Part shown: in pieces, positions 1 through 30,711 of the stretch
Layout: each line of letters starts with the position of its first letter
How positions within the stretch are numbered: the first letter of the stretch is position 1
Virus record (IMG/VR): IMGVR_UViG_3300046468_001139
Direction: 5' to 3' (one strand)
Length of the DNA: 64,000 bases
Source: a virus
Notes under the pieces: generated by a model
Seen by the model: the letters and a program-made list of their open reading frames with translations, nothing else
The model's database searches: none
Told to the model about the DNA's origin: nothing
Program-made: the position numbers and the translations under genes

Positions 1-934
1 ATTCGTTAGTTGCAAAATGGTCTATAGCAAGTGTATCTAAGTTTAATGATACAAACTCTTTACAGCCTTCCCAACAAGTATGTGTTAATAATGTGTTACC
101 ATTCATAGTTCCGTATTTGAAACCCATCTGTCCACCCATGTCATCTGTGCTAGATGAATCATACGCAACTGATTGAACTGTATCACCGTCATATACCCAG
201 AAGTTAAATTCTGTAGTACCGTCCATAATTAATGGAGCACCAACTGCTTTAGTTCCGTTTGTGTTAACATGATAAAACGCACCGTTAGTTGGCGCCATGT
301 GTGATGTAATTTTATCTGTTCCCATATCTAATGTTAACAGGACGTTAGTTGTTCTACCATATGGAAAAAATACAACTTCGTTTAGTTCTTTTACATACAC
401 ACTATGAATAGAAGCAAACTTTTCTTCTGTTTCATGTACTGTAAATGTATTAGCAACTGTATCAAACACAATAATCATTCCACTCATAATTGGTGGATAA
501 ACAATTTTAGTACCAACTGTAATTGGTCTACCAAAGTTAAAGTGTCCACAGAACGTTTTAGGAGTTTCTGAGCCGTGTACTGTTACACCTTTTTCTTCGA
601 TCATAGTAACTTCATTAGTTGTTAAATCTATTGCCGCTACTCTAATTGTGCTATCTACTTTATCTTTTTGTGTACGCATTACGTATGCTGTATTACCTAC
701 AACTGCAATGCCACGGTATCTGTCACCGTTTTCACTTTTATCAAAGAAGTCTACAAACGTAGTCTTATCAGCATTTACTCTAAGTAAGCCTGCTCTCGCT
801 CCTGCATCTTTGTTAAAATCTCTTGATTCTTCGCCTTCGTGGCGTACTTTTCCGTTAGTGATCACTGACAAAAACTCGCCATTTCCTAAGTGGTATGGCT
901 CGTCTAATACCTGTGTAAAATATGTGTTGCTCAT
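1..934 (-). CDS. Beta-propeller-like protein with PYG-type repeats (3' end runs off the window)
   Basis: Not in the ORF track. My translation from the ATG at 934 (RBS AGGAG upstream) reads MSNTYFTQVLDEPYHLGNG...KIVYPPIMSG...VVFFPYGRTT...AVGAPL..., open to base 1. The repeat pattern resembles 7947..9173 and 9166..10293. Confidence 0.7.
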   Translation of the reverse strand, partial: MSNTYFTQVLDEPYHLGNGEFLSVITNGKVRHEGEESRDFNKDAGARAGLLRVNADKTTFVDFFDKSENGDRYRGIAVVGNTAYVMRTQKDKVDSTIRVAAIDLTTNEVTMIEEKGVTVHGSETPKTFCGHFNFGRPITVGTKIVYPPIMSGMIIVFDTVANTFTVHETEEKFASIHSVYVKELNEVVFFPYGRTTNVLLTLDMGTDKITSHMAPTNGAFYHVNTNGTKAVGAPLIMDGTTEFNFWVYDGDTVQSVAYDSSSTDDMGGQMGFKYGTMNGNTLLTHTCWEGCKEFVSLNLDTLAIDHFATNE

Positions 935-952
935 TATTATCTCCTGTTACTG

Positions 953-1681
953 TTATTTATCTGCTATATTGCAGTTTATTGATAAAAGCGATTGCATAAA
1001 TGAATCGTCAACTCTGGATAACAAATGTACTCGATCTGTGTTTCCTGGGTTCTCTGTACCATGGGGTACAAGGGTGTTAATTATGTAACCTTTGCCCAAT
1101 TCCATATGATATTTGCGTTCTCTATTTTCACCAAAAGTGAAAACTGCATCAGTATTAGTATGAAATGGAACGTGTAGTTTTCTAGTTTTTCCGTCAGTAT
1201 GTGTATTAACTTTTAGCCCTGACGGGTGTAGTGCTATCAGTATTTGTCTTAGGGCTTGTAAAGATAAAGTTTCTATCATTTTATTTAGAATACCAAACTT
1301 ATAAACTTGCATTGGTACGCAATCGTAATAGAACTTTTCTTCATCAAGGTCTTGTAATTCTGGGTACTTAGAAACATTAGCTTGTGTTTTACTTGGACAC
1401 GGAATATCTCTTTCTACAGGCCAACTAACACTCCAACCACCTACGTTTCCTACATAGTTTCCTACAGCATTTTCTTTTTGAAATCTTTCGTATATATCAG
1501 GACGTAGGTATTCTTTAGAATTAAAATTAAAACAAAGATGTTGTAAACGTGATCGTAGTTCTTTATGATAAGATTCTAAGTCATCTTTGTCAATGCTAAA
1601 ATCTAATTCAATCATATCCCATTCGAGACTATCAAACAATGTATCAACGTCTGTTATATCTTTAGGTTTTAATAATCTCAT
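953..1681 (-). CDS. 2OG-Fe(II) oxygenase, aspartyl/asparaginyl beta-hydroxylase-like
   Basis: HTD (HxD)...LHVPFHTN...INTLVPHGTENPGNTDRVHL facial-triad cupin motifs. Confidence 0.75.
   Translation of the reverse strand: MRLLKPKDITDVDTLFDSLEWDMIELDFSIDKDDLESYHKELRSRLQHLCFNFNSKEYLRPDIYERFQKENAVGNYVGNVGGWSVSWPVERDIPCPSKTQANVSKYPELQDLDEEKFYYDCVPMQVYKFGILNKMIETLSLQALRQILIALHPSGLKVNTHTDGKTRKLHVPFHTNTDAVFTFGENRERKYHMELGKGYIINTLVPHGTENPGNTDRVHLLSRVDDSFMQSLLSINCNIADK
954..960 (-). promoter_or_regulatory. Putative late promoter (A)TAAATA
   Basis: T4 late-promoter-like (TATAAATA) core about 20 nt upstream of the ATG at 934; the motif recurs before many genes in the window. Confidence 0.5.
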
Positions 1682-2229: not shown

Positions 2230-2647
2230 CTAGTGTGTCCCTTATAATTGTATACGCATACTTTCCGTCGTGCTTGATTCTCGTATTATTTACATAATCT
2301 GCAACGGCTTTACTACGTGATTCGCCTTTCATACAATGTATATGAATTGTTCCGCAGGCGTCTTTAAGGAAATTTGAAATATGTTGAATTTGTGTTAGTG
2401 TTGGTGCAACGGCTGTGTAATAGTCTTTAATATCTTCGCCCCAATTTGTACTGTCTTTTGAAACGTCATCAAAACATAAATTTAATACATTAGGGTGAAA
2501 CTGTTCAAAGTATGGCTCTGAGTTAGGACCGCCTGTTGAATCAATACAAATATAATAGTCGTTGGTATCTTCAACTGTTGTATCTGTAATATTTTCTTTT
2601 TGCATTTTAGATACAAAGTCTTTCTTACTATAACTTACGGCAATCAT
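2219..2647 (-). CDS. Protein-tyrosine/dual-specificity phosphatase-like protein (CX5R)
   Basis: IHIHCMKGESRS P-loop motif with an upstream FDD. Start moved to the ATG at 2647 to avoid a 140-bp overlap with the upstream gene. Confidence 0.7.
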   Translation of the reverse strand: MIAVSYSKKDFVSKMQKENITDTTVEDTNDYYICIDSTGGPNSEPYFEQFHPNVLNLCFDDVSKDSTNWGEDIKDYYTAVAPTLTQIQHISNFLKDACGTIHIHCMKGESRSKAVADYVNNTRIKHDGKYAYTIIRDTLDEL

Positions 2648-3275
2648 CTGTCCAAACCTTTCCGTATAAATGTATTCTATTTGTACTACCTTTGTTTTCC
2701 ACACTATGCGGAATAGTTGTATTAACAAGATATGCCCAACCTGGTTCCATGTGATATGTTTCGCCACCTATGATCCAATTACTATCTTCATTAGTGTGTA
2801 TAGGAATGTGTACACGAAGTTTATCTGGACTGTCTTGGTGTGTAATTAGTTTAGTGCCTGGAGTATGAATAGTTACTAACCACTTCTTACTACGCATTGG
2901 CAAATTATTTACAACGTCTAGTGCATAACCTTTAAAGCATTCTCTTGGGTTAAGTTCATCATTGTCGTTGTCTCGATACTCTGGCTTTGCACAACCTTGT
3001 TCAAATGGCTTAGGTCCTGGTTCGTTACTGTTCCAACATAGTGTATAGTATGCAGTATCGTCCATTAGACGATGTCCTGTCTTTGCTTCAGGATCACTAA
3101 TAGGAAACTGCCATACGTGTTGCTGTTCTCCTATAACAAACTTCCAATCACTATAATCTCTTTCTAAGTCAGCGTACCAACTTTGCATTGAGTATGGATT
3201 AACCTTGCATAACTTTTTAACTGCCCAACCTAAGTCTGCTTGGTCGTGCTTTTCTATATAACGCTTCATTTCCAT
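2628..3275 (-). CDS. 2OG-Fe(II) oxygenase, aspartyl/asparaginyl beta-hydroxylase-like
   Basis: PGTKLITHQD...VHIPIHTN...VNTTIPHSVENKGSTNRIHL. Confidence 0.8.
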   Translation of the reverse strand: MEMKRYIEKHDQADLGWAVKKLCKVNPYSMQSWYADLERDYSDWKFVIGEQQHVWQFPISDPEAKTGHRLMDDTAYYTLCWNSNEPGPKPFEQGCAKPEYRDNDNDELNPRECFKGYALDVVNNLPMRSKKWLVTIHTPGTKLITHQDSPDKLRVHIPIHTNEDSNWIIGGETYHMEPGWAYLVNTTIPHSVENKGSTNRIHLYGKVWTDDCRKL

Positions 3276-4744
3276 TAGGCGTACCTCGGGTGTGTTAACT
3301 GTACGTTGTCACGCACTCGTGAATTCATATCAACTGCAATATAATCATGTCCATATAGTACAAGGTCGTTTGGTATTTGTGCTTCAAACTTTAACCATTG
3401 CTGTTCTAACTCTTCTGGCTCTACATTCCAATGTAACATTTCACTTGACCATATGTTAGTAGTCCACATTACCTTAGTACCATGTACACTATTAATAACA
3501 TCAAACAGTTTAGTATTATCATATATAAGATCTACTACATGAAACTCATGTTTAAGGTCTCTGTACCTACTCCATAGTCTTTGAAATGCTAATGAGCCTC
3601 CAAAGTCTTTTAGTTCTTGCTCCCAAAACTTTTTATAGTTTCCTCTGTACGTAGAACTAAAGTTATAATCTAAATCATTTTCTATTAACCACTTGTCTAA
3701 ATCGTAACCGTCCCAAGTTTCTAATAAATGTTTCTTATAATTTAAACTTGCTTCGCACCAATCAAAGTAATGTACTGTAGTACCTTCATGAAAGCCGTTT
3801 GCATTTAATATTGCAAGTGGTTTAAATCCTGCGGCCGCACTAAACAAATGATCGATTAGTTTTCCGCCTGTCCTTACTCCTTCACTACTTAAAGTTTCTG
3901 TGTTAAACGCATATACTCTATTCTTTTCTATCTCTTCTTGGTATGCTTGTTTTCTAATCCAGGCTTTTTGACTTTGATTAGTTAATTCATCTACTATAGG
4001 GCTTTGTTTGTTGTACCATACTGCACCTAACTTATCTGAATCACTATAAGGATATAAAAATACTTTGCAGGCTCGCATGTCGTTGTCTAAATTATCAATC
4101 TGTATGTTTTTACGCATAGCAATATCAATCCAATTAGAACCATCGCTAGTTGTAGCATACTTACTTGTACCTTGCATGTTTTTAATCCACTTAGGTGTGT
4201 AATTACTATGAATAGTATCTTCACTTAGACAATAATTTTGCAACTCCGGTTTTCTGTCCCAGAAAACACCCATCTCATCAAATGCTGGCTTTCCTAGTTC
4301 AACCCATTTGCTTAAATTTACAAACAAGTATTGTCTATGTAACCCAGGGTATGCACCTTTAGTAAGATAATGTTGATTCTTTTTGTCCATGATGTGACCA
4401 ACTACAAAAAACTGCGGATTGTTTTCAGCATATTCCACACTTTGTTGCACTAAACTTGGTCCTCTAAACAATAACAGTCCTTGACATGCTACCATTGCAA
4501 ACTCTTTGTCTTTTGCTAGTGCTTCTTCAAGAATTGTTTCAACACGTTTATGAAATCCTACGTAATTACACATGCCCATCTTTAACATGCGATTGATATA
4601 AAAGTATGTCATATCAAAAGAACGTTTTTGTACTGTAGCATTTGGTATGTCGCGACTAATATCAAGAATACCTACACCAACACGGTTGTCAAGGTTGAGA
4701 TTCTCGTAGTATCTATCAGCTGTGATGCTATTCCAGTCTTTCAT
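3275..4744 (-). CDS. Hypothetical protein; C-terminal half possibly a class I SAM-dependent transferase fold
   Basis: 489-aa ORF coupled to its neighbours. FSAAAGFKP...TVHYFDWCEASLNYKK resembles SAM-binding motifs I/II (DUF3419/BtaA-like); the match is weak. Confidence 0.4.
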   Translation of the reverse strand: MKDWNSITADRYYENLNLDNRVGVGILDISRDIPNATVQKRSFDMTYFYINRMLKMGMCNYVGFHKRVETILEEALAKDKEFAMVACQGLLLFRGPSLVQQSVEYAENNPQFFVVGHIMDKKNQHYLTKGAYPGLHRQYLFVNLSKWVELGKPAFDEMGVFWDRKPELQNYCLSEDTIHSNYTPKWIKNMQGTSKYATTSDGSNWIDIAMRKNIQIDNLDNDMRACKVFLYPYSDSDKLGAVWYNKQSPIVDELTNQSQKAWIRKQAYQEEIEKNRVYAFNTETLSSEGVRTGGKLIDHLFSAAAGFKPLAILNANGFHEGTTVHYFDWCEASLNYKKHLLETWDGYDLDKWLIENDLDYNFSSTYRGNYKKFWEQELKDFGGSLAFQRLWSRYRDLKHEFHVVDLIYDNTKLFDVINSVHGTKVMWTTNIWSSEMLHWNVEPEELEQQWLKFEAQIPNDLVLYGHDYIAVDMNSRVRDNVQLTHPRYA

Positions 4745-4745
4745 G

Positions 4746-5444
4746 TTACCCCTGATTAGTATAATAGCTTTGTCTTAGTACATAAAAGAAATCTCTAATA
4801 CGTCTGCCTAGTTCATAATGTATAATCATATGTATACGAGGCGTATCACTATCGTTATATACTGCATGTACGTTTGATATGTCCATAAGGAACGCACTAC
4901 CTTGGTCTTCAAACGGAACTATACCGTGGTCTTTAAAAATAAAGTTACAATTTTCTGGATTGTTTAGACTAATATTACAAACACTCAAACGCTTTTCTTC
5001 ATCTGACCTATCTTGGTGTGGAAGAATGTATCCACCTGGTTCAAGTAACATAAATCTTACACGATTTAAAAACTCTGCAGGCCACACATCTGTTAAAAAC
5101 TTTTTAGTAACAGGACATTCGTCTGCTACCCAAGTCCAATCTAGCTGTTTAATTGATTCTTGTCTATCACCGTAAGTGTTTAAACTTTGAGTATCTTCAT
5201 TTAGTCCGTGTAGTGTTAGACTTTTCCAACCTTTGCCATATGTAGTTTCTCTGTGTAAATGAAACTTGTCTGCAAGTGCTTCAGCTTCTTTGTGCATTTC
5301 TTTCCAAGGCTGGTTATCTAATGCACTTAGCCTAAAACAAGGCCAGCCACTTTCCATTATAACCCATTTAGGGTCAAATTGCTCTGGATACTTTACAGTA
5401 ACAATGTCTTTTCTACGTTTTATGTGTTCTATATCTGCTGTCAT
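4746..5444 (-). CDS. 2OG-Fe(II) oxygenase, aspartyl/asparaginyl beta-hydroxylase-like
   Basis: GWKSLTLHG...RVRFMLLEPGGYILPHQD...HAVYNDSDTPRIHMIIH. Confidence 0.8.
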   Translation of the reverse strand: MTADIEHIKRRKDIVTVKYPEQFDPKWVIMESGWPCFRLSALDNQPWKEMHKEAEALADKFHLHRETTYGKGWKSLTLHGLNEDTQSLNTYGDRQESIKQLDWTWVADECPVTKKFLTDVWPAEFLNRVRFMLLEPGGYILPHQDRSDEEKRLSVCNISLNNPENCNFIFKDHGIVPFEDQGSAFLMDISNVHAVYNDSDTPRIHMIIHYELGRRIRDFFYVLRQSYYTNQG

Positions 5445-5472
5445 AACTCTACTATGTCATTAAACTATCTGT

Positions 5473-5478
5473 TAAATA
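5473..5478 (+). promoter_or_regulatory. Putative late promoter TAAATA, 5 nt before ATG (leaderless-type)
   Basis: gttTAAATAtacttATG; no Shine-Dalgarno sequence. Confidence 0.5.
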
Positions 5479-5483
5479 TACTT

Positions 5484-6461
5484 ATGCCTTACCTAACTGC
5501 TGATACACTAGATGCGATTGTCGTTGATTTCACAAGTCATTGTAATTCTATGTGCGGAAATTGTAGTAGAAATTTAGGTGGTGTTAAGGTAAATCCTTCA
5601 ATGCCATTAAGCCACATGACTATGGAAACATGGAAAAATATCATAGATAATGCTACTACTAATGAAATAATATTTAATGGTAATTATGGTGATGCATTAA
5701 TGAATCCTATTTTGGTTGAAGCACTTGAATATGCCGCTTCAGAAGATATACAAATTATGATTCATACTAATGGTGGTGTAGGTATGCCAGAACAATATGT
5801 TGCACTAGCAAACGTATTAAAGAAATTTAAGCAACCTAGTGGCGTTACTTGGAGTATAGACGGATTAGAAGATACTAATCATTTGTACAGACGAGGAGTT
5901 ATATGGGAACGCATTATGAATAACGCTAAAGCGTTTATACAAGCCGGTGGTAAAGCACGTTGGCGTATGCTAGTGTTTGAACATAATGCACATCAGTTAG
6001 AAGAAGTAGAACAGTTAAGCAAAGACATGGGCTTTTTAAAATTTGACATTAATGGTGGTTATACTTTTACTGCTCTTAATAGTATAGTTGACGGTGCTAT
6101 TGAAAAATTTAAAGCAAATAAAAAAGACGAAGCTCGTGTAGTTAAATATGATAGTAAACATCTTGACCAAGTTGAAAGATTAGAAAAAATTAAAGACTTT
6201 AGCGAAACTACTATAAAATGCAAATGGCAAAACAAAAGAAAAATACAAATTAACCATATAGGTGAAGTATTACCTTGTTGTTACTTACTAAGTGACCGTT
6301 GGCCTAAAGACATTAATAGTCCGTATGCTAAACAACAAAATGATATTGTATGGCCAAATGTAAACGATAGATCATTAACAGATATAATTGAAGGTGAAGA
6401 ATTATTAATGCCAAGTAAAAACAGATTTAAAATATGTGAGGTAACCTGCGGTGAGATGTAA
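5484..6461 (+). CDS. Radical SAM protein with C-terminal SPASM/twitch-like domain
   Basis: CNSMCGNC; GNYGD; C-terminal CKW...GEVLPCCY...CEVTC. Start placed at ATG 5484, because the longer ORF overlaps the divergent gene. Paralog of 14435..15433. Confidence 0.85.
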   Translation: MPYLTADTLDAIVVDFTSHCNSMCGNCSRNLGGVKVNPSMPLSHMTMETWKNIIDNATTNEIIFNGNYGDALMNPILVEALEYAASEDIQIMIHTNGGVGMPEQYVALANVLKKFKQPSGVTWSIDGLEDTNHLYRRGVIWERIMNNAKAFIQAGGKARWRMLVFEHNAHQLEEVEQLSKDMGFLKFDINGGYTFTALNSIVDGAIEKFKANKKDEARVVKYDSKHLDQVERLEKIKDFSETTIKCKWQNKRKIQINHIGEVLPCCYLLSDRWPKDINSPYAKQQNDIVWPNVNDRSLTDIIEGEELLMPSKNRFKICEVTCGEM

Positions 6462-7524
6462 ATACTTAGACAATCAAGTTTGTGTACGATCAGATGGACA
6501 ATATCGTCTATGTTGTGTTAGCCTTGAACAAACTAATAAAGAAAATATTAAAACACATACCCCACAAGAATGGCATGACAGTGACTTTCATAAAAAGACT
6601 GTTAAGGAGATGGAAGAAGGTAAATGGCCAGATGCTTGTACACGTTGTGAACAACAAGAACTACAAGGTATTGACAGTATGCGTACTAGAGTAAAACCAG
6701 ACGGTACTAGATACGTTAGAAACTTTTATGGTCCTGGACTAAGTCATCTTGATATTAGATTTGGTAATAGTTGTAATCTTAAATGTGTTAGCTGTTGGGA
6801 AATGAGCAGTAGTAGTATTGCCGAAGAAGCTATCGAAATGAAGAAGGCCGGTATTGTTCCATTACACGGAGTGCTTGAAGTTCCAAACTTTAATTGGGCA
6901 TCAGAAGAAACAATGAAAAAGTTTGATGACTTGCCTATTAGAGAAGTTTATCTAACAGGTGGCGAACCTATGATGGTTAGACACTTAGATAAGTTTTTAG
7001 AAAGACTTGATCCAAGTGTAGTAGTTAGATTTAATACTAACGGAACGTTATGGAACCCTAGAATTGAGAAACTACTAAAGAGATTTAAATTAGTAGTTAT
7101 GAGTCTTAGCTTAGATGCCGCAAGTGATAAAATTAATTACATTAGAAGCGGAAGTAAATGGGACGAAATAGAAGTTAATGCACAAAAGTATGCAGAGTTT
7201 TGTAAAGTTGACGTAACTCCAACACTTAGTATTCTTAATGCGTTATACTATGACGAGCTTAAAGAATATGCTACTAAGAATAATTTTAAAATTTACGATA
7301 ACTTATTAATTCTTCCAGAGTGGTTACATGTTAAAAATGCTCCTGATAGTTTAAAGGAACAGTTTAAAGGAATACATCCAGATGTTGACGGATGGGCAGA
7401 TCATCCCAGTGATCCTAAAATTATTGAACACTTCATAAGACAAATAACAAAGCAAGATAATTGGCGTAAGATGTACATTAAAGATTACTTGCCAGAGGTG
7501 GCAAAGGCTTATGAAATTAATTAA
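6451..7524 (+). CDS. Radical SAM protein with N-terminal SPASM-like domain
   Basis: N-terminal C...DGQYRLCC...CTRC; CNLKCVSC; TGGEP; NTNGT. Confidence 0.88.
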   Translation: MRCKYLDNQVCVRSDGQYRLCCVSLEQTNKENIKTHTPQEWHDSDFHKKTVKEMEEGKWPDACTRCEQQELQGIDSMRTRVKPDGTRYVRNFYGPGLSHLDIRFGNSCNLKCVSCWEMSSSSIAEEAIEMKKAGIVPLHGVLEVPNFNWASEETMKKFDDLPIREVYLTGGEPMMVRHLDKFLERLDPSVVVRFNTNGTLWNPRIEKLLKRFKLVVMSLSLDAASDKINYIRSGSKWDEIEVNAQKYAEFCKVDVTPTLSILNALYYDELKEYATKNNFKIYDNLLILPEWLHVKNAPDSLKEQFKGIHPDVDGWADHPSDPKIIEHFIRQITKQDNWRKMYIKDYLPEVAKAYEIN

Positions 7525-7966
7525 AGAAAATACCGAATGGGGTAGAAAAGTATTTGAGCTTGAAGACAGGTTCCGTAAAGAATGGACTGTGATTGATCGA
7601 GAAAGACTTGAAGAACATATTATTATACTTGATGAAGTTATGGAAGGCTGGGTAATTGATTGGGGCGTTGATGACGAAAAGATGTTTATTGAATATCACA
7701 AAGTTCCTGGTACACCGGCAAGTGAGTTTGCTCACACACCACAGTTTATAAAAAAGATTTACGACTTTTGTAAGTTTACTATCAATGAAACTAGTCCGTA
7801 TGCACACTACGACTGGGTACTAAGTAATATTATGATTGACGGTGATAAAATGTATATGGTAGATTGGGATAACGTTGGGTTATACAACGAAGAACAAATC
7901 ATGACTAAACTACATTCTGATTTAACAAGTGCATTTGGAGATAAATTTGACCCCGCAAGCCTTTAG
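7511..7966 (+). CDS. Small protein-kinase-like/APH-family phosphotransferase
   Basis: HYDWVLSNIM (HxDxxxxN catalytic loop) and MVDWD (DFG-equivalent). Confidence 0.6.
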   Translation: MKLIKENTEWGRKVFELEDRFRKEWTVIDRERLEEHIIILDEVMEGWVIDWGVDDEKMFIEYHKVPGTPASEFAHTPQFIKKIYDFCKFTINETSPYAHYDWVLSNIMIDGDKMYMVDWDNVGLYNEEQIMTKLHSDLTSAFGDKFDPASL

Positions 7967-17304: not shown

Positions 17305-17956
17305 ACTGTAGTTCTAACCATTCAAAATCGTTTATTAACCCCAAATCAGCGCCGTCAGAAAGGCCAAACTGCATACCAGCATTAGCACCTCGTAACGCAT
17401 ATCTACTATGTATTCCATCAGCATGAGTAGTCCAAGTTTTAAGTCGTTCATTTGTTTCTTCCTCTAGTTGTCCTTGTATTGTTTTACTTGCCAGCTTTGC
17501 ACATTCTCTAAACGCACCACGCCATGTACTTAATGGATCTGTGTTGAACGCAGTAATGTTACTAACTTCTGGCATTGCTTTAAATTTATCACTAATACTA
17601 GTAGTCATATCATTTGTTGTAGTGTCCATCTTTAGTGTAAGCATACGTGGTAATAACTTAACTCCACCATATCCATACTCTAATCCGTTAACAGGATTTC
17701 TTGCTCTCCACACATGAACACAATCTAAATCGTAACTACTAACTTCGTGATCAAATTTAAAATCGTCTACTATCTGGGCGTCACCATCTACAACCCAAAA
17801 CATTTTTGTAAAACATTTTTTAGCACCTGCTACGTGTGCTTGGTGAATTCCTTTAACATCTTTAACACGCTTTGCCATCGGATATTGTTGTTTAAGTTTA
17901 TCCCAATTACTATCAGCGTTTGCTTCACCGTAACTTATAAAAACAATATCATACAT
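17285..17956 (-). CDS. Putative GT-A fold glycosyltransferase
   Basis: DIVFISY...AKRVKDVKGIHQAH...FWVVDGD (DxD). Paralog of 24749..25633. Confidence 0.6.
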   Translation of the reverse strand: MYDIVFISYGEANADSNWDKLKQQYPMAKRVKDVKGIHQAHVAGAKKCFTKMFWVVDGDAQIVDDFKFDHEVSSYDLDCVHVWRARNPVNGLEYGYGGVKLLPRMLTLKMDTTTNDMTTSISDKFKAMPEVSNITAFNTDPLSTWRGAFRECAKLASKTIQGQLEEETNERLKTWTTHADGIHSRYALRGANAGMQFGLSDGADLGLINDFEWLELQYANDSF

Positions 17957-20026: not shown

Positions 20027-20054
20027 TATGATCTCCAATCATTATATACGTACA

Positions 20055-20072
20055 TAAATATAGTAGTATTTA
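20055..20072. promoter_or_regulatory. Pair of oppositely oriented TAAATA late-promoter-like motifs between divergent genes
   Basis: TAAATA on + at 20055-20060 and on - at 20067-20072, in the gap between ugd (-) and the gene at 20088 (+). Confidence 0.5.
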
Positions 20073-20087
20073 TGGAAAGTTAAACAC

Positions 20088-21374
20088 ATGAAGTTGATTC
20101 AAGACTCTATTGCAAAGAATGATTATGTAGCTCGACCGCACACTACGCAGTCTATTGAGAAATTAAAAGAAGCTATTAGTGCCGGAAAACACAAGTTAAT
20201 TGACGCAAGTGCAATACATTGTTTAATTCAATATCCTGATTGGCATACTGATCTTAACTTGTTTAGATTTGTAAAACCCAAAGCATTAAAACAATTAAAA
20301 AACGATCCAAAGTGTTTTTTCCTTTTTGATACAAGTACAGAAGGCTTTAGTACAATACACGATGTTCCATACTTTGATGTTTTATATTATAGTTGCGAAC
20401 AAGCAGGTGTTGATCCTGAAAAAGTTATATTTTTTAGTTCTAACATGTATGACGAAAGTAACATTGTACGTTTTAATATGGAACACAATAAACAAAAATC
20501 TATTAAGGTTGTTACGTTTAATAACTTTGAATCAATGCTGTTTGGTATAGCCGGTGCTGAAAGTATTGGCGATAGTGTACGACAACAGATTGACGGCGAG
20601 ACTTGTGACCAGTATGTTGAAAGACGCATGAAACAAGAAAAACAAGAAGTTGCACAACGCTATAAGGGTAAAATATTTTTAAGTTTAAGTCGTGTTAATA
20701 GACCGCACCGTACATTGAGTGCTTACGAAATTTTTCATAGTGATTTATACTATCACGGATTAGTAAGTCATGATTTGTTTAAAAAGAAAACATTAAAACA
20801 TTGGCATAGTTATCAAATGCCAACTGGTTGTAATATATCAGGAAGTGATATTAAAAAGTGGCAGAAGAACGTCCTTCCGCTTACAATCGATACTGATGAC
20901 TTTATAACTAATCATGCTATGAGTCTAAGTAGTTACTTGCACCAACAAACATTATTTCAAATAGTAAACGAAACGTTTGCAGAAAATTGGCAAGGTACTA
21001 GTTTGTTCTGGAGTGAAAAAACTTTTAGAAGTATATATCACTTACAACCTTTCTTAATATTTGGACAACGCCATGCTAATCTAAAACTACAAGATTACGG
21101 CTATAAGATCTTTGATAACAACTTTGATTATAGCTTTGACGAAGAACACGATACATATAAACGTTGGTCTAAACTTAGAGTAGAAGTTGAAAAACATGTA
21201 AATAGAATATCAGCTTTGCCTATTACTAAACAGATTGACTGGCGTTGGAGACAAGCTGATCTACTAGCACACAACTTAAAAAATATGGTAGACGAGAATC
21301 ATACTAAGAGTCAAATGACCGGCTTAGTTAAATACATGGTAGAGAAAATAAATGAGCAAGAAACTAATACATAA
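20088..21374 (+). CDS. Putative glycosyltransferase (GT10/fucosyltransferase-like C-terminal motif)
   Basis: FLSLSRVNRPHR...IVNET...FWSEKTFRSI...PFLIFG resembles the GT10 'EN...Y.TEK...P..G' signature. Confidence 0.45.
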   Translation: MKLIQDSIAKNDYVARPHTTQSIEKLKEAISAGKHKLIDASAIHCLIQYPDWHTDLNLFRFVKPKALKQLKNDPKCFFLFDTSTEGFSTIHDVPYFDVLYYSCEQAGVDPEKVIFFSSNMYDESNIVRFNMEHNKQKSIKVVTFNNFESMLFGIAGAESIGDSVRQQIDGETCDQYVERRMKQEKQEVAQRYKGKIFLSLSRVNRPHRTLSAYEIFHSDLYYHGLVSHDLFKKKTLKHWHSYQMPTGCNISGSDIKKWQKNVLPLTIDTDDFITNHAMSLSSYLHQQTLFQIVNETFAENWQGTSLFWSEKTFRSIYHLQPFLIFGQRHANLKLQDYGYKIFDNNFDYSFDEEHDTYKRWSKLRVEVEKHVNRISALPITKQIDWRWRQADLLAHNLKNMVDENHTKSQMTGLVKYMVEKINEQETNT

Positions 21375-22224
21375 TACTCCAAAGAGAATTTTTACCTTTG
21401 GTTGTAGCTTTACAGGTTATCAATGGGGTACATGGGCTAATATTATAGGTGTAGAATTTCCCGAAGCAGAGTTTAGAAACTTTGGTCGTAGTGGTGCAGG
21501 TAATCAGTATATACACAACATGATTATGCAGGCTGATAATGTATACAACTTTACACACGAGGATCTAGTTATTGTACAATGGACTAATGTATGTAGAGAA
21601 GATAGATATCTACCTGAAAAAGACGGATGGCTAGTACCTGGTAATATATTTTCACAAGGTGACTATAATCAAAACTTTATTGAAAACTACTTTAGCGAGT
21701 TTGGATCGTATGTTAGAGACTTTGCACTAATTAAAAGTGCCCACCAATTACTTAAACATCGTTGCAATCATCATATGATTAAGATGTTAGATTTTGAATA
21801 TTCAAATCAATGGGACTTAAAACCAAACCCAGACTTAGATTTACAAACACTTACACATATGTATGAAGAAAGTATAGATCAAATACTACCTAGCTTTTAT
21901 GCTACGCTGTGGAATAATAACTTAGAAGCTAAAATATCAAAAGATAAAAAAATTGTACATAAACTTTTCCATGACGGACATCCTACTCCACTTGAACACT
22001 ACGACTACTTAAAGAACGTATTCAAACATGACTGGAGTGATAAAACTGACAAAGTAGTAGGTGCTACACAAAAGAAATGGGTTAAGTTAATGACAAGTGC
22101 ATGTTTAGGTCAACCTGGACAGGGCTTTAGCTTGTATGAAATGAAACAGCGTTGGTTGGATATGTTAAAGTACGAAACTATTATGCGTCCTAATACGCAA
22201 ATTAATCCGTTAATACGTCAATAA
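21352..22224 (+). CDS. SGNH-fold protein (GCS variant)
   Basis: FTFGCSFT, NFGRSGAGN, VIVQWT, DGHP. Confidence 0.6.
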   Translation: MSKKLIHNTPKRIFTFGCSFTGYQWGTWANIIGVEFPEAEFRNFGRSGAGNQYIHNMIMQADNVYNFTHEDLVIVQWTNVCREDRYLPEKDGWLVPGNIFSQGDYNQNFIENYFSEFGSYVRDFALIKSAHQLLKHRCNHHMIKMLDFEYSNQWDLKPNPDLDLQTLTHMYEESIDQILPSFYATLWNNNLEAKISKDKKIVHKLFHDGHPTPLEHYDYLKNVFKHDWSDKTDKVVGATQKKWVKLMTSACLGQPGQGFSLYEMKQRWLDMLKYETIMRPNTQINPLIRQ

Positions 22225-23395
22225 GTTCTGGAAACGTTTCGTCAAAAGAACGATTACGTATTTTATCAAAATACATATTTTTAGATTTAAACAAATCATT
22301 TGCACTTTGGTCAAACGTTGACTTTTGCAAGTAATCAATAACACCATTTACATATCTTAAATGTTCTGTATGCGTTACTGTATTTGCGTATGCTTGTAAC
22401 TTATCTATTGCTGTGTGTCTTTGTTCATCTGTTAGTGCATTAAAACTATAATGATTAGGTTCAACAATATTGTAAAGCGTACTATTGTTTACATCAAATC
22501 CTTTACCAGACATGTATTCTAAAAAGTCTACAAGTGTTAGTACATTAAATGCACTTACTACACAATTAAAACTAATAATTACATGCGGACTTTCTTCTTT
22601 AATAATTTTTAAGTTCTGTTCTATAGTTGGCCAGTCAGTACCTTCTCTAATATACTCACCTCTGTTTCCATAGCCGTCAATACTTGCACGTACTTCAACG
22701 TGTTTAAAATTATTCCAATACTCTGTAATACTTTTCTTCTTAAAAAATAAATTACTTAAATTACTATTATATTGCAGTACAGCATCAGTCTTTTTATTTT
22801 CAATCAAATAATCTAAAATATCATAATGCTTATCTGTAATAAGAGGCTCACCTCCTGCAAAATAATAATCTTGAATGCCTTTGAGGTATGGCTTAAACTG
22901 TTCAAAAAGGTTATCGTTGTTGTCGCCACCTGCAAAAATGTATACAGGTTTATTTTCACCTTGCTTGTTATCTTCTACAGCCCATGTAGAACTGTAAGTA
23001 CTACTACAGGTTCTGCATTTAAAATTACAAATATTACTCCAACGCACATCAAAGTATAACAACTTCATTATATCTAACGAACCGTCAAAATTGGTTTCGT
23101 CTTTTATACTAATATGTTGTGCAAATCTATTATTTTGTGCAATTCTATTGCTTTCTAAACCTGCTTCTTCGTGCTTCCAACATTGTGTACACGCACTAGG
23201 CTTTTCGTTGTTTAATAATGCAAGTCTTAATTTTTTATATTCCTCACTATTCCATATTTCTTCAATAGTGTTGTTACGTGTGTTGCCAAGAGGTTGTCGC
23301 CAATCGCCTATACAACAAGGAAGTACGTTGCCGTCTGGATTAGCATAGAAATGAATCCAAGGAAGTATGCAAAATGTATTACTTTCCGCAGTCAT
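22202..23395 (-). CDS. Radical SAM protein with N-terminal SPASM-like domain
   Basis: FCILPWIH...GNVLPCC...IWNS...CTQC; CNFKCRTC; AGGEP; NSNL. Confidence 0.9.
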   Translation of the reverse strand: MTAESNTFCILPWIHFYANPDGNVLPCCIGDWRQPLGNTRNNTIEEIWNSEEYKKLRLALLNNEKPSACTQCWKHEEAGLESNRIAQNNRFAQHISIKDETNFDGSLDIMKLLYFDVRWSNICNFKCRTCSSTYSSTWAVEDNKQGENKPVYIFAGGDNNDNLFEQFKPYLKGIQDYYFAGGEPLITDKHYDILDYLIENKKTDAVLQYNSNLSNLFFKKKSITEYWNNFKHVEVRASIDGYGNRGEYIREGTDWPTIEQNLKIIKEESPHVIISFNCVVSAFNVLTLVDFLEYMSGKGFDVNNSTLYNIVEPNHYSFNALTDEQRHTAIDKLQAYANTVTHTEHLRYVNGVIDYLQKSTFDQSANDLFKSKNMYFDKIRNRSFDETFPELIDVLTD

Positions 23396-24752
23396 TATAA
23401 AAGCCTTCTAGTTCTGGAAAAGTTTCTACCAAGTTACAGTTACGTCTACGATCAAATTCTTTGAACCAGTTATGAAAATCTCTACGTGCTTGTTCTAGTT
23501 TACGTGGTTCATAATGTGTTGTACGCATATACTCTACTACACGCTTAAACTTTTCATATTCTAATCCTGTAAACTTAGTACGGTCGTTATCGTCTTGGTT
23601 GTCTTTAATAAATTGTAAATGTTTTTCCATATACGGCATGAATTCTTCTTTAGGTAAAATGTTCATGTCATATATGCTTGGTTCTTTTAAATGAGGTGTG
23701 TCAAATCTAACACGTTGCCATTGTGTAGCATTGTCATCACTATTGTATTTTGTACGCCACTCTAGTATTTTTTCTAATAGTTGCGTAAAACTAGTTACAC
23801 CAAATATATTAAATGTAATCATAAACGTTACAGGCCAGTTTGTATTGCTTAGATAATAATCTAAGTTTTGTTCCCATAACTTAATGTCTAAACCAGTACG
23901 TGCATATTCTGCTCTTGGTCCCCAAGTATCAATACTAGTGTACAATTTAAAACTTTTAATCTTACCTTCTGCTTTTAAACGCTTAACTGTTTCAGTTAGC
24001 TTTTCAACTAGCTTAGGCTTAACACCCATGTTGCTGTTTACTTCAATTTGTATATGTGGCTTAGGATCGTTGTCTAACTTTTCTAACAGTTTCCAAAAAC
24101 TTTTATGCATTAACGGCTCACCACCTGTAATACGCAAAATGTTTAGTGTCTTACTAAGTTCAGGCCACCATTCCCAGAACGCTTTTACGTATGGATTAGT
24201 ATCTTCGTCTTTTTGTACTTCAAACCAATCAATGTCTTGCCTATGTGTGCTTGACATGTCGTATGGTCCATGTTGTTTTATTTCGTTCCAGTACCTACTA
24301 GAGGCTTTAGGATGACAGTATCCACACTTGAAATTACATTCATTACTAAAACTAATTTCAATATACTCAGGATTTACGTTAAAATCCGCCCCTTTTTGTT
24401 TTATTTCCGCTACTCTTTCAGGTGTGTATATACTTGCAGTTTTAATATGTCTATCACTTATAAAGTCTTTGCCCATTGCTTCAATTTTCCAACAGTAACT
24501 ACAACCGTCTGGTTTATCTCCACATAGCATTTGTTTACGTTGTTCTTTTTTCTCAATAGTATTATGTAACGCACTAGGATTGCCTTCTAATTCTTCTAAA
24601 GGAATTTTATGCGGAGCAGGATGGTAACAACTATGCGTTTCTCCTGTTGCAAGATAGATAGTTGTGTGATGCCATTTTGCTAAACAGAATGTTGGAGAGG
24701 TTTCACTCTCAATTTTAGGCATTACTGACTTAATTTTTTCTAATTCATTCAT
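23379..24752 (-). CDS. Radical SAM protein with N-terminal Cys/His-rich domain
   Basis: FCLAKWHH...GETHSCYH...CSYCW; CNFKCGYC; TGGEP; NSNM. Confidence 0.88.
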   Translation of the reverse strand: MNELEKIKSVMPKIESETSPTFCLAKWHHTTIYLATGETHSCYHPAPHKIPLEELEGNPSALHNTIEKKEQRKQMLCGDKPDGCSYCWKIEAMGKDFISDRHIKTASIYTPERVAEIKQKGADFNVNPEYIEISFSNECNFKCGYCHPKASSRYWNEIKQHGPYDMSSTHRQDIDWFEVQKDEDTNPYVKAFWEWWPELSKTLNILRITGGEPLMHKSFWKLLEKLDNDPKPHIQIEVNSNMGVKPKLVEKLTETVKRLKAEGKIKSFKLYTSIDTWGPRAEYARTGLDIKLWEQNLDYYLSNTNWPVTFMITFNIFGVTSFTQLLEKILEWRTKYNSDDNATQWQRVRFDTPHLKEPSIYDMNILPKEEFMPYMEKHLQFIKDNQDDNDRTKFTGLEYEKFKRVVEYMRTTHYEPRKLEQARRDFHNWFKEFDRRRNCNLVETFPELEGFYNDCGK

Positions 24753-25633
24753 TTACGAATAACTCTGTCCGTGTTAATATATACTTGTTTGAAAAAATGA
24801 CTTTGTTCATCGTCAAAAGGTGTAGACGAGAGAGGTAATCCGCACTCGCTACTAAGACGTTGACCTAATTCTTTACTGTATGCTAACGGATCTTTATTTT
24901 TTGTTTCTTCCCACAGTTTATTAAGATATACAAAGTCTCTTGTTTGTACAAAGTCCCAATCTGTACACATTGTCATGTAACAACCTTGTCTTGCTCCCAT
25001 TACACTCCATATGCCATTGTCTACATCAGCACCAACTTGCATCCATATTAACAAACGTTGATAATTTTGCCACCAAGTATCGTTTGCAAGGTCTTTAACT
25101 TTAGCACCTCTGTTCAAACTCATCTTGACTCCTTCACGGAACCCTGCTCTCCATGCTTGATGTGGAGTTGCATTTATAAGACTTGTACTATAGTTGTCAT
25201 TTAATTGATAGTAATTATCAAAGTAACAAAATTCAATACTAGTATCATCTTCACCGTCTGTGTTTTCATGCGTTTGCATATTTTTTACAAAGTCTTTAGT
25301 CCACATTTTTAAACTGCCATTACCATATTTTAGTCCGTTAACATTAATATGTCCGCACCAACTAAATTGATAATCATCGTCAACTTTTAATTCGTCTAAG
25401 TCTAATACTACGTTTAAAAACTCTGGGTCAATAATTGTATCGCCATCTACTGTAACAAAGTGTTTAGTTTCGCTTAATTCAGCACAGGCTTTGTGTGCCG
25501 CATCTGATCCTTCTACACCGTGTACACGCTTTGCCCACGGAACTTTGTTAACTAAATCAACAAAATTCTTTTCACAATTAGGTTCGTCATAAGATAGAAA
25601 TATAATATCCTGCTCTGCGATGTTTATTTTCAT
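24749..25633 (-). CDS. Putative GT-A fold glycosyltransferase
   Basis: DIIFLSYDEP...AKRVHGVEGSDAAH...FVTVDGD; AWRAGFREG shared with 17285..17956. Confidence 0.6.
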   Translation of the reverse strand: MKINIAEQDIIFLSYDEPNCEKNFVDLVNKVPWAKRVHGVEGSDAAHKACAELSETKHFVTVDGDTIIDPEFLNVVLDLDELKVDDDYQFSWCGHINVNGLKYGNGSLKMWTKDFVKNMQTHENTDGEDDTSIEFCYFDNYYQLNDNYSTSLINATPHQAWRAGFREGVKMSLNRGAKVKDLANDTWWQNYQRLLIWMQVGADVDNGIWSVMGARQGCYMTMCTDWDFVQTRDFVYLNKLWEETKNKDPLAYSKELGQRLSSECGLPLSSTPFDDEQSHFFKQVYINTDRVIRK

Positions 25634-26220
25634 TTGATTACCTCGTACATATATCTATCAAAGTTTTTAATTGTATATACGCTAACTGGTTTTGCACTAA
25701 ACTCAAAATCACTATCAAAAGGCAGTACTACGTATTTTACGTCTGATAAATCAGCAAAACTAAAACTTAATGTTTTTAATAATATATTTGGATCGTCTTT
25801 TTCTGTAATACTAAATGTTATTGTATTTTTAAAGTTAACTTTCTGTGCTAAAATGTTTGCTTTTAAATCTCCACCAATAGTAATTTTCCAACATGTATCT
25901 TTAATATTTTGTAATACATGGATATCAGGTGCTTCAGATGATACACTTGGTAATTGGTATATTAAATCATCTACTAGATAACTGTCAATACTAGTATTAG
26001 AACGTTGTCTAAGTTCATATTGTTTAGTACGTTTAATATAATGTACATAATAATAGCTAAGAGGTTCTTCGCCTGAAATCATACCTTTAACTTCATGCTC
26101 CTCTACAGGAATATAACTTCCATCTTTAGGTTTATAGTTAGGTACTGAAATAACATCTCCGTTAGTAGGATCAAATACTACATACCTTTCTTGTTTAGGT
26201 AACTCTACACTTAATTTCAT
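25630..26220 (-). CDS. Hypothetical protein
   Basis: 196-aa ORF with overlapping start/stop coupling on both sides. Confidence 0.6.
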   Translation of the reverse strand: MKLSVELPKQERYVVFDPTNGDVISVPNYKPKDGSYIPVEEHEVKGMISGEEPLSYYYVHYIKRTKQYELRQRSNTSIDSYLVDDLIYQLPSVSSEAPDIHVLQNIKDTCWKITIGGDLKANILAQKVNFKNTITFSITEKDDPNILLKTLSFSFADLSDVKYVVLPFDSDFEFSAKPVSVYTIKNFDRYMYEVIK

Positions 26221-27050
26221 ATGTTAAGATACCTTTCGTACTTTTGTATTTTAGATTCATCTAAAAATTCTTTCTCAGTATAGTGGAAAATACCTTGCTG
26301 TTGATGATTACCTATTTTTAATTTTAAGTCATCAGTTAGATATGCACCTACTCTACTACGCCATGTTTCACTAGGATTATACCAACCTTGAATTCTAGGC
26401 TTCATATGTGTAAAACTAGGAAATGTTACTTTCTTGTTTGTAATTTGATCTTCACAATCTAGTATCTTTGTAACGATTGCTGTACTTGTGTCAACACTTA
26501 AAAAGTTTTGATACTCTTTACTTGCATAGTGACCGTAAAAGAACTGCCAGTTGTTCATTACAAGCTCTAACCATGAATAAAAGTCTTTAGCAAAGTCACA
26601 TTTTTTAAAGTAATGAAAGCCTGCATACACATTTGGCAAGTTATTTGCAATATATGTTTTACGATAGTAAGTATCATTTACTACTTCGCCTCTATATGTG
26701 TATACTTTGCTAGTATAGAACACTTCATAGTTGCTTAAAAAGTTCCACCATGAGTCTATGTTTTGTAATACAAGCATATCTGTGTCCATTACAATAGTTT
26801 CATCATACGGACTAGCATGATATAACTTCCAACGGTTAGCTACCTTCCATTCCATGTTAGCGGAATCGTCTTCCCACGGTATTTCTTTGATAACATCGAA
26901 CAGATCTACATACCTAGATGGCACTTTATCGTTGGTTAACAAACAAACTTTAGTGTCATTAGTAGCTCTAATACTCATAGCTAACGCACACGCTTGTTCT
27001 ACGTAGTCATATTCGCTGTTTTGTGCTATTAAAACTATACCTTTAGTCAT
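26217..27050 (-). CDS. Nucleotide-diphospho-sugar transferase (GT8-like)
   Basis: ACALAMSI...VCLLT...FDVI...SPYDETIVMDTD (DxD)...YAGFHYFKK...FHY. Confidence 0.7.
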   Translation of the reverse strand: MTKGIVLIAQNSEYDYVEQACALAMSIRATNDTKVCLLTNDKVPSRYVDLFDVIKEIPWEDDSANMEWKVANRWKLYHASPYDETIVMDTDMLVLQNIDSWWNFLSNYEVFYTSKVYTYRGEVVNDTYYRKTYIANNLPNVYAGFHYFKKCDFAKDFYSWLELVMNNWQFFYGHYASKEYQNFLSVDTSTAIVTKILDCEDQITNKKVTFPSFTHMKPRIQGWYNPSETWRSRVGAYLTDDLKLKIGNHQQQGIFHYTEKEFLDESKIQKYERYLNI

Positions 27051-27891
27051 TATCTATGATCCTATTCAAACTAAACTTGTTCATAACGTGAACACTACTA
27101 CCTTTAATACGCAAAGGTGTGTATTCTCCAAGGTGTCCTTCTTTTTCTACTAAAAATAAAAAGTTGTCATCATTTAATTCCCACAATATATCTCTATCTG
27201 CTGTGTAATATTTTTTACCTGGTAAAGAACTTGCAAAACTACCTGTTTGATATCCGTTCATAATATGTATTGCAATACTAAACACCCAATCATTACGAAA
27301 CGATGATTTGTTAATTTGAAAAATACTGTTATAGTGTTGCCAGTTATCTTGTATGTGTTGTGTTAAGTTAAAAAATGTTTCTACTTCTTTACTTTTCTTA
27401 AAGTATACAACAGTTGCCCAGTAAAAGTCTACACTAGTTTCACTAATTCTTTGAAACTCTGTAGTATCTCTAAATCCTGTTAGGTCTTTTGCGTCTTTAT
27501 ATATTAGGAAATTGTGTTCTTGTGTAAAACAATTTTTAAGTACATCATTTGCAATGATATAATCACTATCTAACATTATTGTTTCGTCATAAGGTGTTAG
27601 TTCATATGCTTGTGTACGCAAGTCATTCTTAAAAGCAAGTTGTTTGTAAACACCCGAACCGTCATAATAACGTTTTTCACTTGCCGCTCTAGTATTTGGT
27701 ACTTCAATGACCTTATCAAATACTGTTTCGTAGTCTGTGTATGTTGCTTTTAAGTAATCAAGACTGTCTGTTACAACAGTTGTTGGTAATCCAAGATATT
27801 TTTTAATACGCTTTGCTAGATAATGTGCTTGTTTACAATAATCTACTTCTAAGTTATTTCTAGCAAATATTAATGCACCTCTATTCTTCAT
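27043..27891 (-). CDS. Nucleotide-diphospho-sugar transferase (GT8-like)
   Basis: TTVVTD...FDKVI...TPYDETIMLDSD...WATVVYFKK...RND...HVMNK; paralog of the downstream gene. Confidence 0.7.
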   Translation of the reverse strand: MKNRGALIFARNNLEVDYCKQAHYLAKRIKKYLGLPTTVVTDSLDYLKATYTDYETVFDKVIEVPNTRAASEKRYYDGSGVYKQLAFKNDLRTQAYELTPYDETIMLDSDYIIANDVLKNCFTQEHNFLIYKDAKDLTGFRDTTEFQRISETSVDFYWATVVYFKKSKEVETFFNLTQHIQDNWQHYNSIFQINKSSFRNDWVFSIAIHIMNGYQTGSFASSLPGKKYYTADRDILWELNDDNFLFLVEKEGHLGEYTPLRIKGSSVHVMNKFSLNRIIDND

Positions 27892-28234
27892 ATTCTACAA
27901 GTCCGGAAACCTTTCGCAGGCTCCTTATCTTTTCGTACTCTGTAAGATACTCGTTTGATGCTGTAAAATAAATGTCTAAAATATCACTTAGGAATGTTTC
28001 AATGTCAGCAACTTTTACTGGAATATCATTGTCGTCAATTAGCACTACAGACTCTTGTCCTGTGCTTACTAACATATTACAAAAATTCATTAGGTCTTTG
28101 TTTACTGAGAATTGACCACCATTGTGGTAATGGATTGCACTTTCGTAAAACTTTTCTTTTAAGACTCTTTTTTGGTTGTTAAGAGTAGTCATGTAATTGG
28201 CAAATTCTAATGCCTTTTCAAGACGTTCATCCAT
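27881..28234 (-). CDS. Hypothetical protein (117 aa)
   Basis: Strong RBS AAGGAG; first gene of the minus-strand GT/radical SAM run. Confidence 0.65.
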   Translation of the reverse strand: MDERLEKALEFANYMTTLNNQKRVLKEKFYESAIHYHNGGQFSVNKDLMNFCNMLVSTGQESVVLIDDNDIPVKVADIETFLSDILDIYFTASNEYLTEYEKIRSLRKVSGLVEYEE

Positions 28235-28253
28235 ACTAATTCTCCTTTAGTGT

Positions 28254-28282: not shown

Positions 28283-28285
28283 GTC

Positions 28286-30682: not shown

Positions 30683-30701
30683 TTCTTTTCCTCTATGTTA
30701 C

Positions 30702-30707: not shown

Positions 30708-30711
30708 TCTC

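Follow-up and report, generated by a model that had tools for sequence, protein, structure and literature searches.

A conserved, fibre-linked island of radical SAM, oxygenase and sugar enzymes in an uncultured marine jumbo phage

Results

The island and its linkage to the fibre genes

The DNA analysed here is a stretch of 64,000 nucleotides (the window) from IMG/VR virus record IMGVR_UViG_3300046468_001139, part of an uncultured marine jumbo phage with a G+C content of approximately 34%. Bases 1–28234 hold an island of about 32 members, soluble enzymes that include nine radical S-adenosylmethionine (radical SAM, rSAM) enzymes, five iron oxygenases, and four sugar transferases. The right half of the window carries structural genes on the minus strand: gp25, a gp6-like wedge gene, a hub gene, the gene of a giant protein of 4944 amino acids (aa), and three fibre genes. 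A preliminary description of this DNA, made from the letters and the open reading frames (ORFs), had reported widespread translational coupling in the island. This was confirmed, with neighbouring genes overlapping by 1–23 nt nearly everywhere and intergenic DNA amounting to 789 nt (1.2%) of the window. The island is one conserved, fibre-linked block that extends past base 1, with approximately 8 kb more in a relative of about 90% identity (G001).

The three tail-fibre genes (29192–34553, minus strand), recognised by PHROG tail-fibre matches and a Collar domain, have a common N-terminal attachment domain. Between them and the island lie str297 (28286–29179, minus), a structural protein rich in S, T, N, and G (40%) and by this composition a candidate acceptor, and a junction (28235–28285, minus) in which the promoter-like TTAAATAGTGTATAAT is followed by AAGGAG, resembling the region upstream of gp6 (53482–53534). 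The conserved core of the island then begins, also on the minus strand, with unk117 (27881–28234), the first gene of the core operon. It is followed by GT8b (27043–27891), GT8a (26217–27050), unk196 (25630–26220; family unassigned), GTA2 (24749–25633), and the radical SAM gene NTwi5 (23379–24752). GTA1 (17285–17956) and MT203 (15426–16037) complete the core.

Neighbourhood analysis upheld the adjacency of island and fibre genes and extended it to relatives. Gene order is kept in dozens of them, down to 60% identity. In two divergent contigs (L051 and L052; 50–60% identity), the order is giant protein, p205, three fibres, a str297-like gene, unk117 (48–58% identical), GT8b, GT8a, unk196, GTA2, and an N-twitch rSAM gene, and then a variable tail rich in rSAM genes. 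In the cultured soil Ralstonia jumbo phage RsoM2USA, it is gp6, giant protein, the fibre/str297-like ORF355, unk117 (ORF354, 34%), GT8b (ORF353, 36%), GT8a, a gene of the same size as unk196, GTA2, NTwi5 (ORF349, 39%), GTA1, and, after it, the homologue of MT203. This eight-gene core is 33–45% identical to ours, and all of its genes are annotated as hypothetical; among deposited phages, a clear homologue of NTwi5 is present in RsoM2USA alone. The str297 gene or its counterpart is invariably the last structural gene before the core. The order shared by L051, L052, and RsoM2USA indicates that the linkage is ancient and that the distal part is variable.

The distal island is a mosaic: in a single relative, the identity of adjacent genes varies between 66% and 99%. 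Other relatives substitute an aminotransferase, a flavodoxin-like reductase, or a Hexapep/GMPPB_C gene. In L047 (71% identity; 11296–13612 and 19434–20075), propeller genes are replaced, and a class III aminotransferase, a faint QueC-like gene, and a flavodoxin-like/flavin mononucleotide reductase are added; the last might supply the radical SAM enzymes with electrons. The continuation beyond the left end of the window in G001 holds a full prop1, a sixth AspH-like gene, and, at L055:7143–9451, a gene resembling flavin-dependent tryptophan halogenases (PF04820, E 3e-72) together with an AMP-binding fragment of 222 aa. At its far boundary in G001, the island meets an Mtd_N protein that is receptor-binding-like, then a MoxR AAA+/VWA pair, and then a 5'-3' exonuclease.

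The gp6 protein is 35–37% identical to those of Sinorhizobium phage Phosso, Salicola phage SCTP-2, Agrobacterium phage Atu_ph07, and the GAP32/Asteriusvirus group, and the island DNA (25 kb, megablast) has no match among 50,697 phage records. Close relatives are abundant in IMG/VR and Tara data (46 loci), and the homologues of NTwi3, the radical SAM gene at 13141–14457, number 4341 at E<1e-10, mainly in ocean data. From a relative's contig of 268 kb, estimated to be 75% complete, the genome would be approximately 350 kb. Near-identical contigs of island genes occur in RNA libraries from three studies, with fibre sequence present too; these libraries consist of contigs, from which presence can be read but neither strand nor ends nor level. 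One RNA run had greater depth across the fibre genes, and a contig ends at 28306; both were set aside as unusable for operon limits.

Radical SAM enzymes

The count of nine radical SAM genes given in the preliminary description was correct: all nine match Pfam PF04055, and CX3CX2C is intact in each. Eight pass the Pfam cut-off; the ninth, NTwi4 (22202–23395, minus), scores 21.7 bits, yet passes the NCBIfam model NF033640 (N_Twi_rSAM), for which the curated cut-off is 170 bits. The nine belong to three old subfamilies. Five N-twitch enzymes, 22–29% identical to one another, pass NF033640 over the full model length: NTwi1 (6451–7524, plus; 230 bits), NTwi2 (10290–11414, plus; 245 bits), NTwi3 (minus; 427 bits), NTwi4 (386 bits), and NTwi5 (328 bits). 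In these, Pfam SPASM is found at residues 3–90, before Radical_SAM, and a Cys-rich twitch precedes the CX3CX2C core. Two enzymes carry SPASM at the C-terminus, with Pfam matches to both domains (rSAM_C1, 5484–6461, plus; rSAM_C2, 14435–15433, minus; 30% identical). Two are short (rSAM_s1, 11538–12497, minus, Pfam E 3e-11, with a C-terminal Cys cluster; rSAM_s2, 16345–17304, minus, E 1.6e-12; 25% identical). These other four reach 25–54 bits against NF033640 and are not members. No characterised member of this family was found in the literature, and 14 control genomes yielded no match that reaches the cut-off; here, five ancient paralogues are found in one locus. The 268-kb relative has nine rSAM genes above the Pfam cut-off, every one of them inside the island, and one weak match (E 0.004) elsewhere.

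Clues to the substrate come from a fusion search with NTwi5 against 1.8 billion protein representatives. N-twitch enzymes were found fused to GT2 (P0352, PF00535 E 6e-17), to GT2/GT7C (P0279), to a NodU/CmcH carbamoyltransferase (P0368), and, in the case of an NTwi5-type enzyme from one short contig, to a GTA1-like domain (P0292). As “Rosetta stones”, these fusions of rSAM enzymes with glycosyltransferases (GTs) indicate carbohydrate rather than peptide substrates. Related clusters combine the same families: a 29-kb JGI contig (L053) has nine rSAM genes interleaved with five GT2 genes, and an 82-kb Logan contig (L054) has eight rSAM genes (one of them B12-binding), PqqD, GT1, an amidohydrolase, a carbamoyltransferase fusion, and a Peptidase_S74 fibre-chaperone domain. 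The search also returned metagenomic proteins of 866–1203 aa in which two or three complete N-twitch modules stand head to tail (P0241, P0242, P0246, and P0390).

Sugar enzymes

The UDP-sugar dehydrogenase proposed earlier is well founded. The gene at 18854–20026 (minus) encodes a nucleoside diphosphate (NDP)-sugar 6-dehydrogenase of the UDP-glucose/GDP-mannose dehydrogenase family that matches all three Pfam domains; its TIGR03026 score of 165 bits is slightly below the 189.8 cut-off, and its likely start is the GTG at 20026, after GGAG. About five GTs had been proposed. Two GT8-like and two putative GT-A-like enzymes are supported, and the GT10-like reading of unk428 (20088–21374, plus) has no model support: it has no Pfam, PHROGs, NCBIfam, or PDB match, and an Atlas value of 0.77 to GT10 clusters is a lead only.

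GT8a and GT8b are paralogues (25% identical), and their profile finds glycogenin at E 5e-6. The AlphaFold model of GT8a (pLDDT 84; D89-x-D91 invariant) has only GT8 enzymes as its top Foldseek matches, all with a probability of 1.0, and its structural neighbours are protein-directed members: glycogenin, GlyE, Skp1 galactosyltransferase, LARGE1, and UGGT. Neither protein matches any Pfam family at E up to 10, PF01501 included, and 0 of 120 homologues have a Pfam domain. Given the missing PF01501 match, we regard the pair as a divergent GT8-like group and not as certified GT8 members. No match to GT8a was seen in short IMG/VR fragments, which is uninformative.

GTA1 and GTA2 (30% identical) are GT-A-like, or GT2-like, proteins with an invariant DxD, at D62-x-D64 in GTA2. 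GTA1 has an Atlas value of 0.98 with a cluster automatically named NDP-sugar transferase. The AlphaFold 2 model of GTA2 (pLDDT 77) has Foldseek matches at E of approximately 1e-4 to SunS/ThuS, PBCV-1 A64R, and HddC. The GT-A fold was also found by VIA, with a Z of about 10 to GT-A transferases and a root-mean-square deviation of 3.2–3.4 Å over 131–140 residues. Neither protein has a Pfam, PHROGs, NCBIfam, or PDB sequence match.

In a hydropathy scan, no clear membrane segment was found in the island enzymes. The scan flagged only TM104 (16034–16348, minus), a 104-aa protein with the single clear membrane segment of the island, and a marginal stretch of NTwi4 that we read as buried. No flippase, polymerase, or lipid-carrier/initiating transferase was detected among the island genes. 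Soluble enzymes and the lack of these three functions place the chemistry in the cytoplasm.

2-Oxoglutarate/Fe(II) oxygenases

Four of the five 2-oxoglutarate (2OG)-Fe(II) oxygenases proposed earlier score above the Pfam cut-off for PF05118, with an invariant HxD...H triad, and all are on the minus strand: AspH1 (953–1681; E 9e-6), AspH2 (1678–2229; E 4e-13), AspH3 (2628–3275; E 6e-14), and AspH4 (4746–5444; E 7e-13; conserved in L047). The fifth, ox215 (12494–13141, minus), is identified solely by profile matches to L-proline hydroxylases (4p7w, E 2.6e-4; 1e5r, E 3.3e-4), with H131-x-D133 and H181 invariant. The best match to the profile of the four AspH paralogues is a Cpz10-type beta-hydroxylase (7v4f, E 2e-9). 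In the structural proteins, we found neither an EGF-type hydroxylation site (CxD/NxxxxF/YxC), the mark of a protein substrate for PF05118 enzymes, nor collagen-like runs. The substrate of the AspH-like enzymes may be a small substituent, or the hydroxyl that they install may serve as an acceptor.

Promoter-like signals and timing

TAAATA had been noted ahead of several island operons, at 954, 5473, 20055/20067, and 28263, and it is indeed found there. The motif is 2.5-fold depleted in the window (54 copies versus 137 +/- 9 expected), and 9 of the 54 copies fall within intergenic gaps that make up 1.2% of the DNA (p = 5e-8), before structural and island operons. One stands 5 nt ahead of the rSAM_C1 ATG, and a divergent control region (20027–20087) carries ATAAATA on both strands. 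We also observed TAAATAT at 4–5 nt before the ATG of both rSAM_C1 (5473–5486) and gp25 (53973–53992), the latter with AAGG upstream of it; if TAAATAT were a promoter element, transcripts of these two genes would have almost no leader.

The T4 late-promoter octamer TATAAATA is absent from both strands of the window (12 +/- 3.4 expected), and sigma-70 sites in the window show no excess over shuffles. Near-perfect sigma-70 promoters, TTGACA-N17-TATAAT or TATAGT, are present at the fibre/island junction of the divergent relatives (L051:8751–8807; L052:8741–8804 and 7475–7528). The window bears an element of the TAAATA type at this place, and the regulatory signal thus appears to have been swapped between lineages. 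The term “dedicated late pathway” used in the preliminary description was an overstatement. Given the junction promoters of L051 and L052, late expression is no more than plausible.

Genes with motif-level support

Several other assignments made in the preliminary description did not find support. Of the supposed propeller repeat scaffolds, prop1 (2–934, minus; cut at the window start, 415 aa in G001) is beta-propeller-like by motif and has no Pfam match, prop2 (7929–9173, plus; absent from L047) has no Pfam match, and prop3 (9166–10293, plus) has a single Kelch match at E 0.0096; no PDB profile match was found for them. prop2 and prop3 are weak mutual paralogues (27% identical), and prop1 has no BLAST match to either (15% identical in alignment). 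The Rossmann-like putative methyltransferase MT203 reached Methyltransf_25 at E 0.056 and had no PDB match of note, the best being a shikimate dehydrogenase Rossmann segment at E 0.017. SGNH1 (17949–18857, minus) was assigned by the motifs GDS...GxN...DxxH, and its weak putative paralogue SGNH2 (21352–22224, plus; 20–23% identical in alignment) likewise by motif; Pfam, PHROGs, NCBIfam, and PDB profile searches supported neither.

The conserved gene unk489 (3275–4744, minus; 52–91% in relatives) is unassigned, with no match in Pfam (E up to 10), PHROGs, or NCBIfam. A minimal kinase-like protein (7511–7966, plus; 151 aa) has the motifs HxDxxxxN...DWD, invariant in seven homologues, and only weak matches, to protein-kinase chains (E 0.14) and also to GntI and Bud32. 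A small HCxxGxxRS (CX5R) protein (2219–2641, minus; 140 aa; 90% conserved in L019) is possibly dual-specificity-phosphatase-like, with DSPc at E 0.0067, below the cut-off, and no PDB match in a profile search. The two would make a possible phosphorylation/dephosphorylation pair inside the island, and neither is confirmed by a model. A search for small peptides in the convergent 123-nt gap at 11415–11537 gave unconvincing ORFs only. The window has no PqqD or RRE match, and no conserved small ORF lies within its 789 nt of intergenic DNA.

Discussion

We give an even chance to the reading that the island encodes a cytoplasmic pathway that builds and then radically tailors a glycoconjugate, probably on fibre proteins. 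It is based on the enzyme families observed, their solubility, the conserved fibre linkage, the mosaic distal part, and the rSAM–GT fusions. We infer the order of the steps as follows. The NDP-sugar dehydrogenase, possibly together with the small kinase-like protein, would supply unusual donors, from which the two glycogenin-like GT8 and two GT-A/GT2-like enzymes would assemble a short glycan. Editing would then fall to the nine rSAM enzymes from the three subfamilies, to five or six hydroxylases of the 2OG-Fe(II) type, and to a few putative acyl or methyl enzymes, with C-H chemistry on the sugars or attached groups. The acceptor would most probably be the phage's own fibre-associated protein, encoded just upstream, which would give the particle a lineage-specific decoration. 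The preliminary description had proposed a glycan-building modification of the virion. Its first half stands, in that a sugar-based product is the best reading of the GT8 and GT-A folds, the NDP-sugar dehydrogenase, and the rSAM fusions to GT2 and carbamoyltransferase; for its second half, virion proteins as the target, we can only infer. XacN1, a close relative of RsoM2USA, is reported to have virion glycoproteins (PMC5852040).

Several findings weigh against this interpretation. The junction promoters of L051 and L052 would suit early rather than virion-coupled expression. The fold of GTA1 and GTA2 fits nucleotidyltransferases equally well, with a VIA Z of about 9 to MobA and IspD, and GT8 enzymes also make lipopolysaccharide (LPS). 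The AspH-like enzymes are nearest to small-molecule hydroxylases of the Cpz10 type and not to human AspH, protein AspH matching at only E 0.02–0.06. Together with the halogenase-like and AMP-binding genes of the G001 continuation, the left arm looks like secondary metabolism and not purely like glycan synthesis. Furthermore, the related cluster in L054 carries a gene for the peptide-binding protein PqqD.

The enzymes could instead remodel the host envelope, by changing the nucleotide-sugar pool or cytoplasmic intermediates of LPS or capsule, and so cause superinfection exclusion or altered recognition. This is how analogous glycosyltransferase islands of pelagimyophages and cyanophages have been read in the literature (PMC7029224; PMC12801897), GT8 and UDP-glucose dehydrogenase being classic for LPS and capsule, and early expression from the junction promoters would fit it. 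However, a membrane enzyme, a flippase, a polymerase, a ligase, or a lipid-carrier transferase was not detected in the island, very distantly related phages with different hosts share the linkage of the core to fibre genes, and the structures nearest to GT8a are protein-directed enzymes rather than LgtC or RfaJ. We hold host-envelope remodelling to be unlikely, though the likeliest of the rivals. We put lower a diffusible or packaged small molecule acting on the host or on competitors, such as a modified nucleoside, an amino-sugar compound, or a RiPP-like (ribosomally synthesised and post-translationally modified) peptide. The resemblance of the AspH-like enzymes to the caprazamycin hydroxylase Cpz10 and to free-proline hydroxylases speaks for such a product, as do the halogenase and AMP-binding fragment, relatives with a class III aminotransferase and a PqqD gene, and the SPASM/twitch rSAM enzymes, which are typical of RiPPs. 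It sits poorly with a window in which no precursor-peptide candidate, PqqD/RRE, or nonribosomal peptide or polyketide synthase core was found and intergenic DNA is so scarce. No exporter was detected either, the rSAM family is fused to glycosyltransferases and not to peptide-binding domains, and the fibre linkage is conserved.

The mosaic content and the varying identity between close relatives, with two arms of different flavour (hydroxylase/halogenase versus GT/rSAM), might also suggest that there is no single pathway and that the locus is a hypervariable dumping ground for unrelated accessory genes beside the fibres. We consider this improbable given the conserved order and translational coupling across 60–99% identity, the retention of the eight-gene core in RsoM2USA, and the domain fusions that connect the families. 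Least likely of all is hypermodification of DNA, in which sugars or amino-acid-derived groups on phage bases would evade restriction. Phage DNA hypermodification clusters can unite kinases, transferases, pyridoxal phosphate enzymes, and radical SAM enzymes, and the kinase-like gene and the faint QueC match in L047 are in keeping with one. Yet the entry enzymes of the hydroxymethyl-pyrimidine and 7-deazaguanine routes, a ThyA-family hydroxymethylase or TGT/DpdA, were not found in three relatives (G001–G003), the largest of them 75% complete, the island lies inside the structural region, and GT8 and GT-A folds are unlike the known T4 DNA glucosyltransferases.

The preliminary description knew of no characterised equivalent. 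This needs qualification, as islands of this kind are already known at the annotation level, but nothing about them has been characterised biochemically. The closest case is the host recognition cluster of pelagimyophages and cyanomyophages (Zaragoza-Solas et al. 2020, PMC7029224), which is read as modifying the host O-chain and in which no enzyme is characterised. As here, it is a hypervariable island of abundant marine T4-related phages, located in the structural region by a giant protein (VrlC/gp7-substitute) and fibres, with GT8, UDP-glucose 6-dehydrogenase, and movable radical SAM cassettes. Those phages are of the Tevenvirinae type at about 150 kb, whereas ours is a jumbo phage of the Atu_ph07/SCTP-2/GAP32 supergroup with a relative of at least 268 kb. 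Our island has far more radical SAM genes (nine), and its boundary in G001 consists of Mtd_N, MoxR, and exonuclease genes instead of neck gp14. In large cyanomyoviruses, as many as 13 GT genes are accompanied by a radical SAM gene and by sugar enzymes (PMC12801897). The T4-related Campylobacter phages CP220 and CPt10 have 11–12 radical SAM genes and an interchangeable five-gene module whose function is undescribed (Timms et al. 2010, PMC2853527). Their modules contain amidinotransferases, and fibre linkage is not reported in that paper; tblastn with NTwi3 and NTwi5 returned no Campylobacter phage, so that homology to the CP220 module is undetected.

Decoration of virion proteins by virus-encoded enzymes has precedents. 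In mycobacteriophages, capsid and tail glycosylation has been demonstrated (Freeman 2023, cited in PMC12582341). There and in chlorovirus PBCV-1, whose A64R is among the Foldseek matches of GTA2, cytoplasmic glycosyltransferases encoded beside structural genes decorate virion proteins. Those systems have few GTs and are not known to include radical SAM enzymes. A cellular parallel in logic is the Skp1 pathway. In Dictyostelium and Toxoplasma, a cytoplasmic 2OG hydroxylase makes an acceptor hydroxyl, and a short glycan is then assembled on it by GT-A and GT8 enzymes. One of these, a galactosyltransferase resembling glycogenin (6mw5), matches GT8a, and ox215 resembles proline hydroxylases. The analogy is one of logic only: no orthology to the Skp1 pathway was found, and no hydroxyproline site is known in this phage. 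In the literature we searched, we found no description of so dense a set of N-twitch rSAM paralogues, of the way they are coupled to glycosyltransferases, or of the eight conserved core genes.

If a virus-encoded glycan pathway is indeed what the island represents, very abundant ocean phages devote approximately a tenth of a genome of about 350 kb to oxygen-sensitive sugar-editing chemistry without a characterised enzyme, and a new class of radical SAM reaction on carbohydrates would be at hand. Particle glycosylation would then be a major and variable trait of Gram-negative jumbo phages, and it would become possible to test the view, assumed in the literature, that islands of this kind serve to remodel the surface of the host. 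We can tentatively go further, to a possibility that we rate below the pathway itself: the N-twitch enzymes may be a new class of radical enzymes that edit carbohydrates in partnership with glycosyltransferases, to which some of them are fused. Their arrays might then act as a combinatorial engine that gives each lineage of giant aquatic phages a different tailored fibre glycan, with effects on host range, defence, or evasion of grazers. The eight-gene core of the cultured RsoM2USA offers a direct experimental handle. Just past that core, RsoM2USA also carries approximately 20 consecutive hypothetical ORFs of about 190–220 aa (ORF313–336; L050:1–14057), which resemble a large paralogue array.

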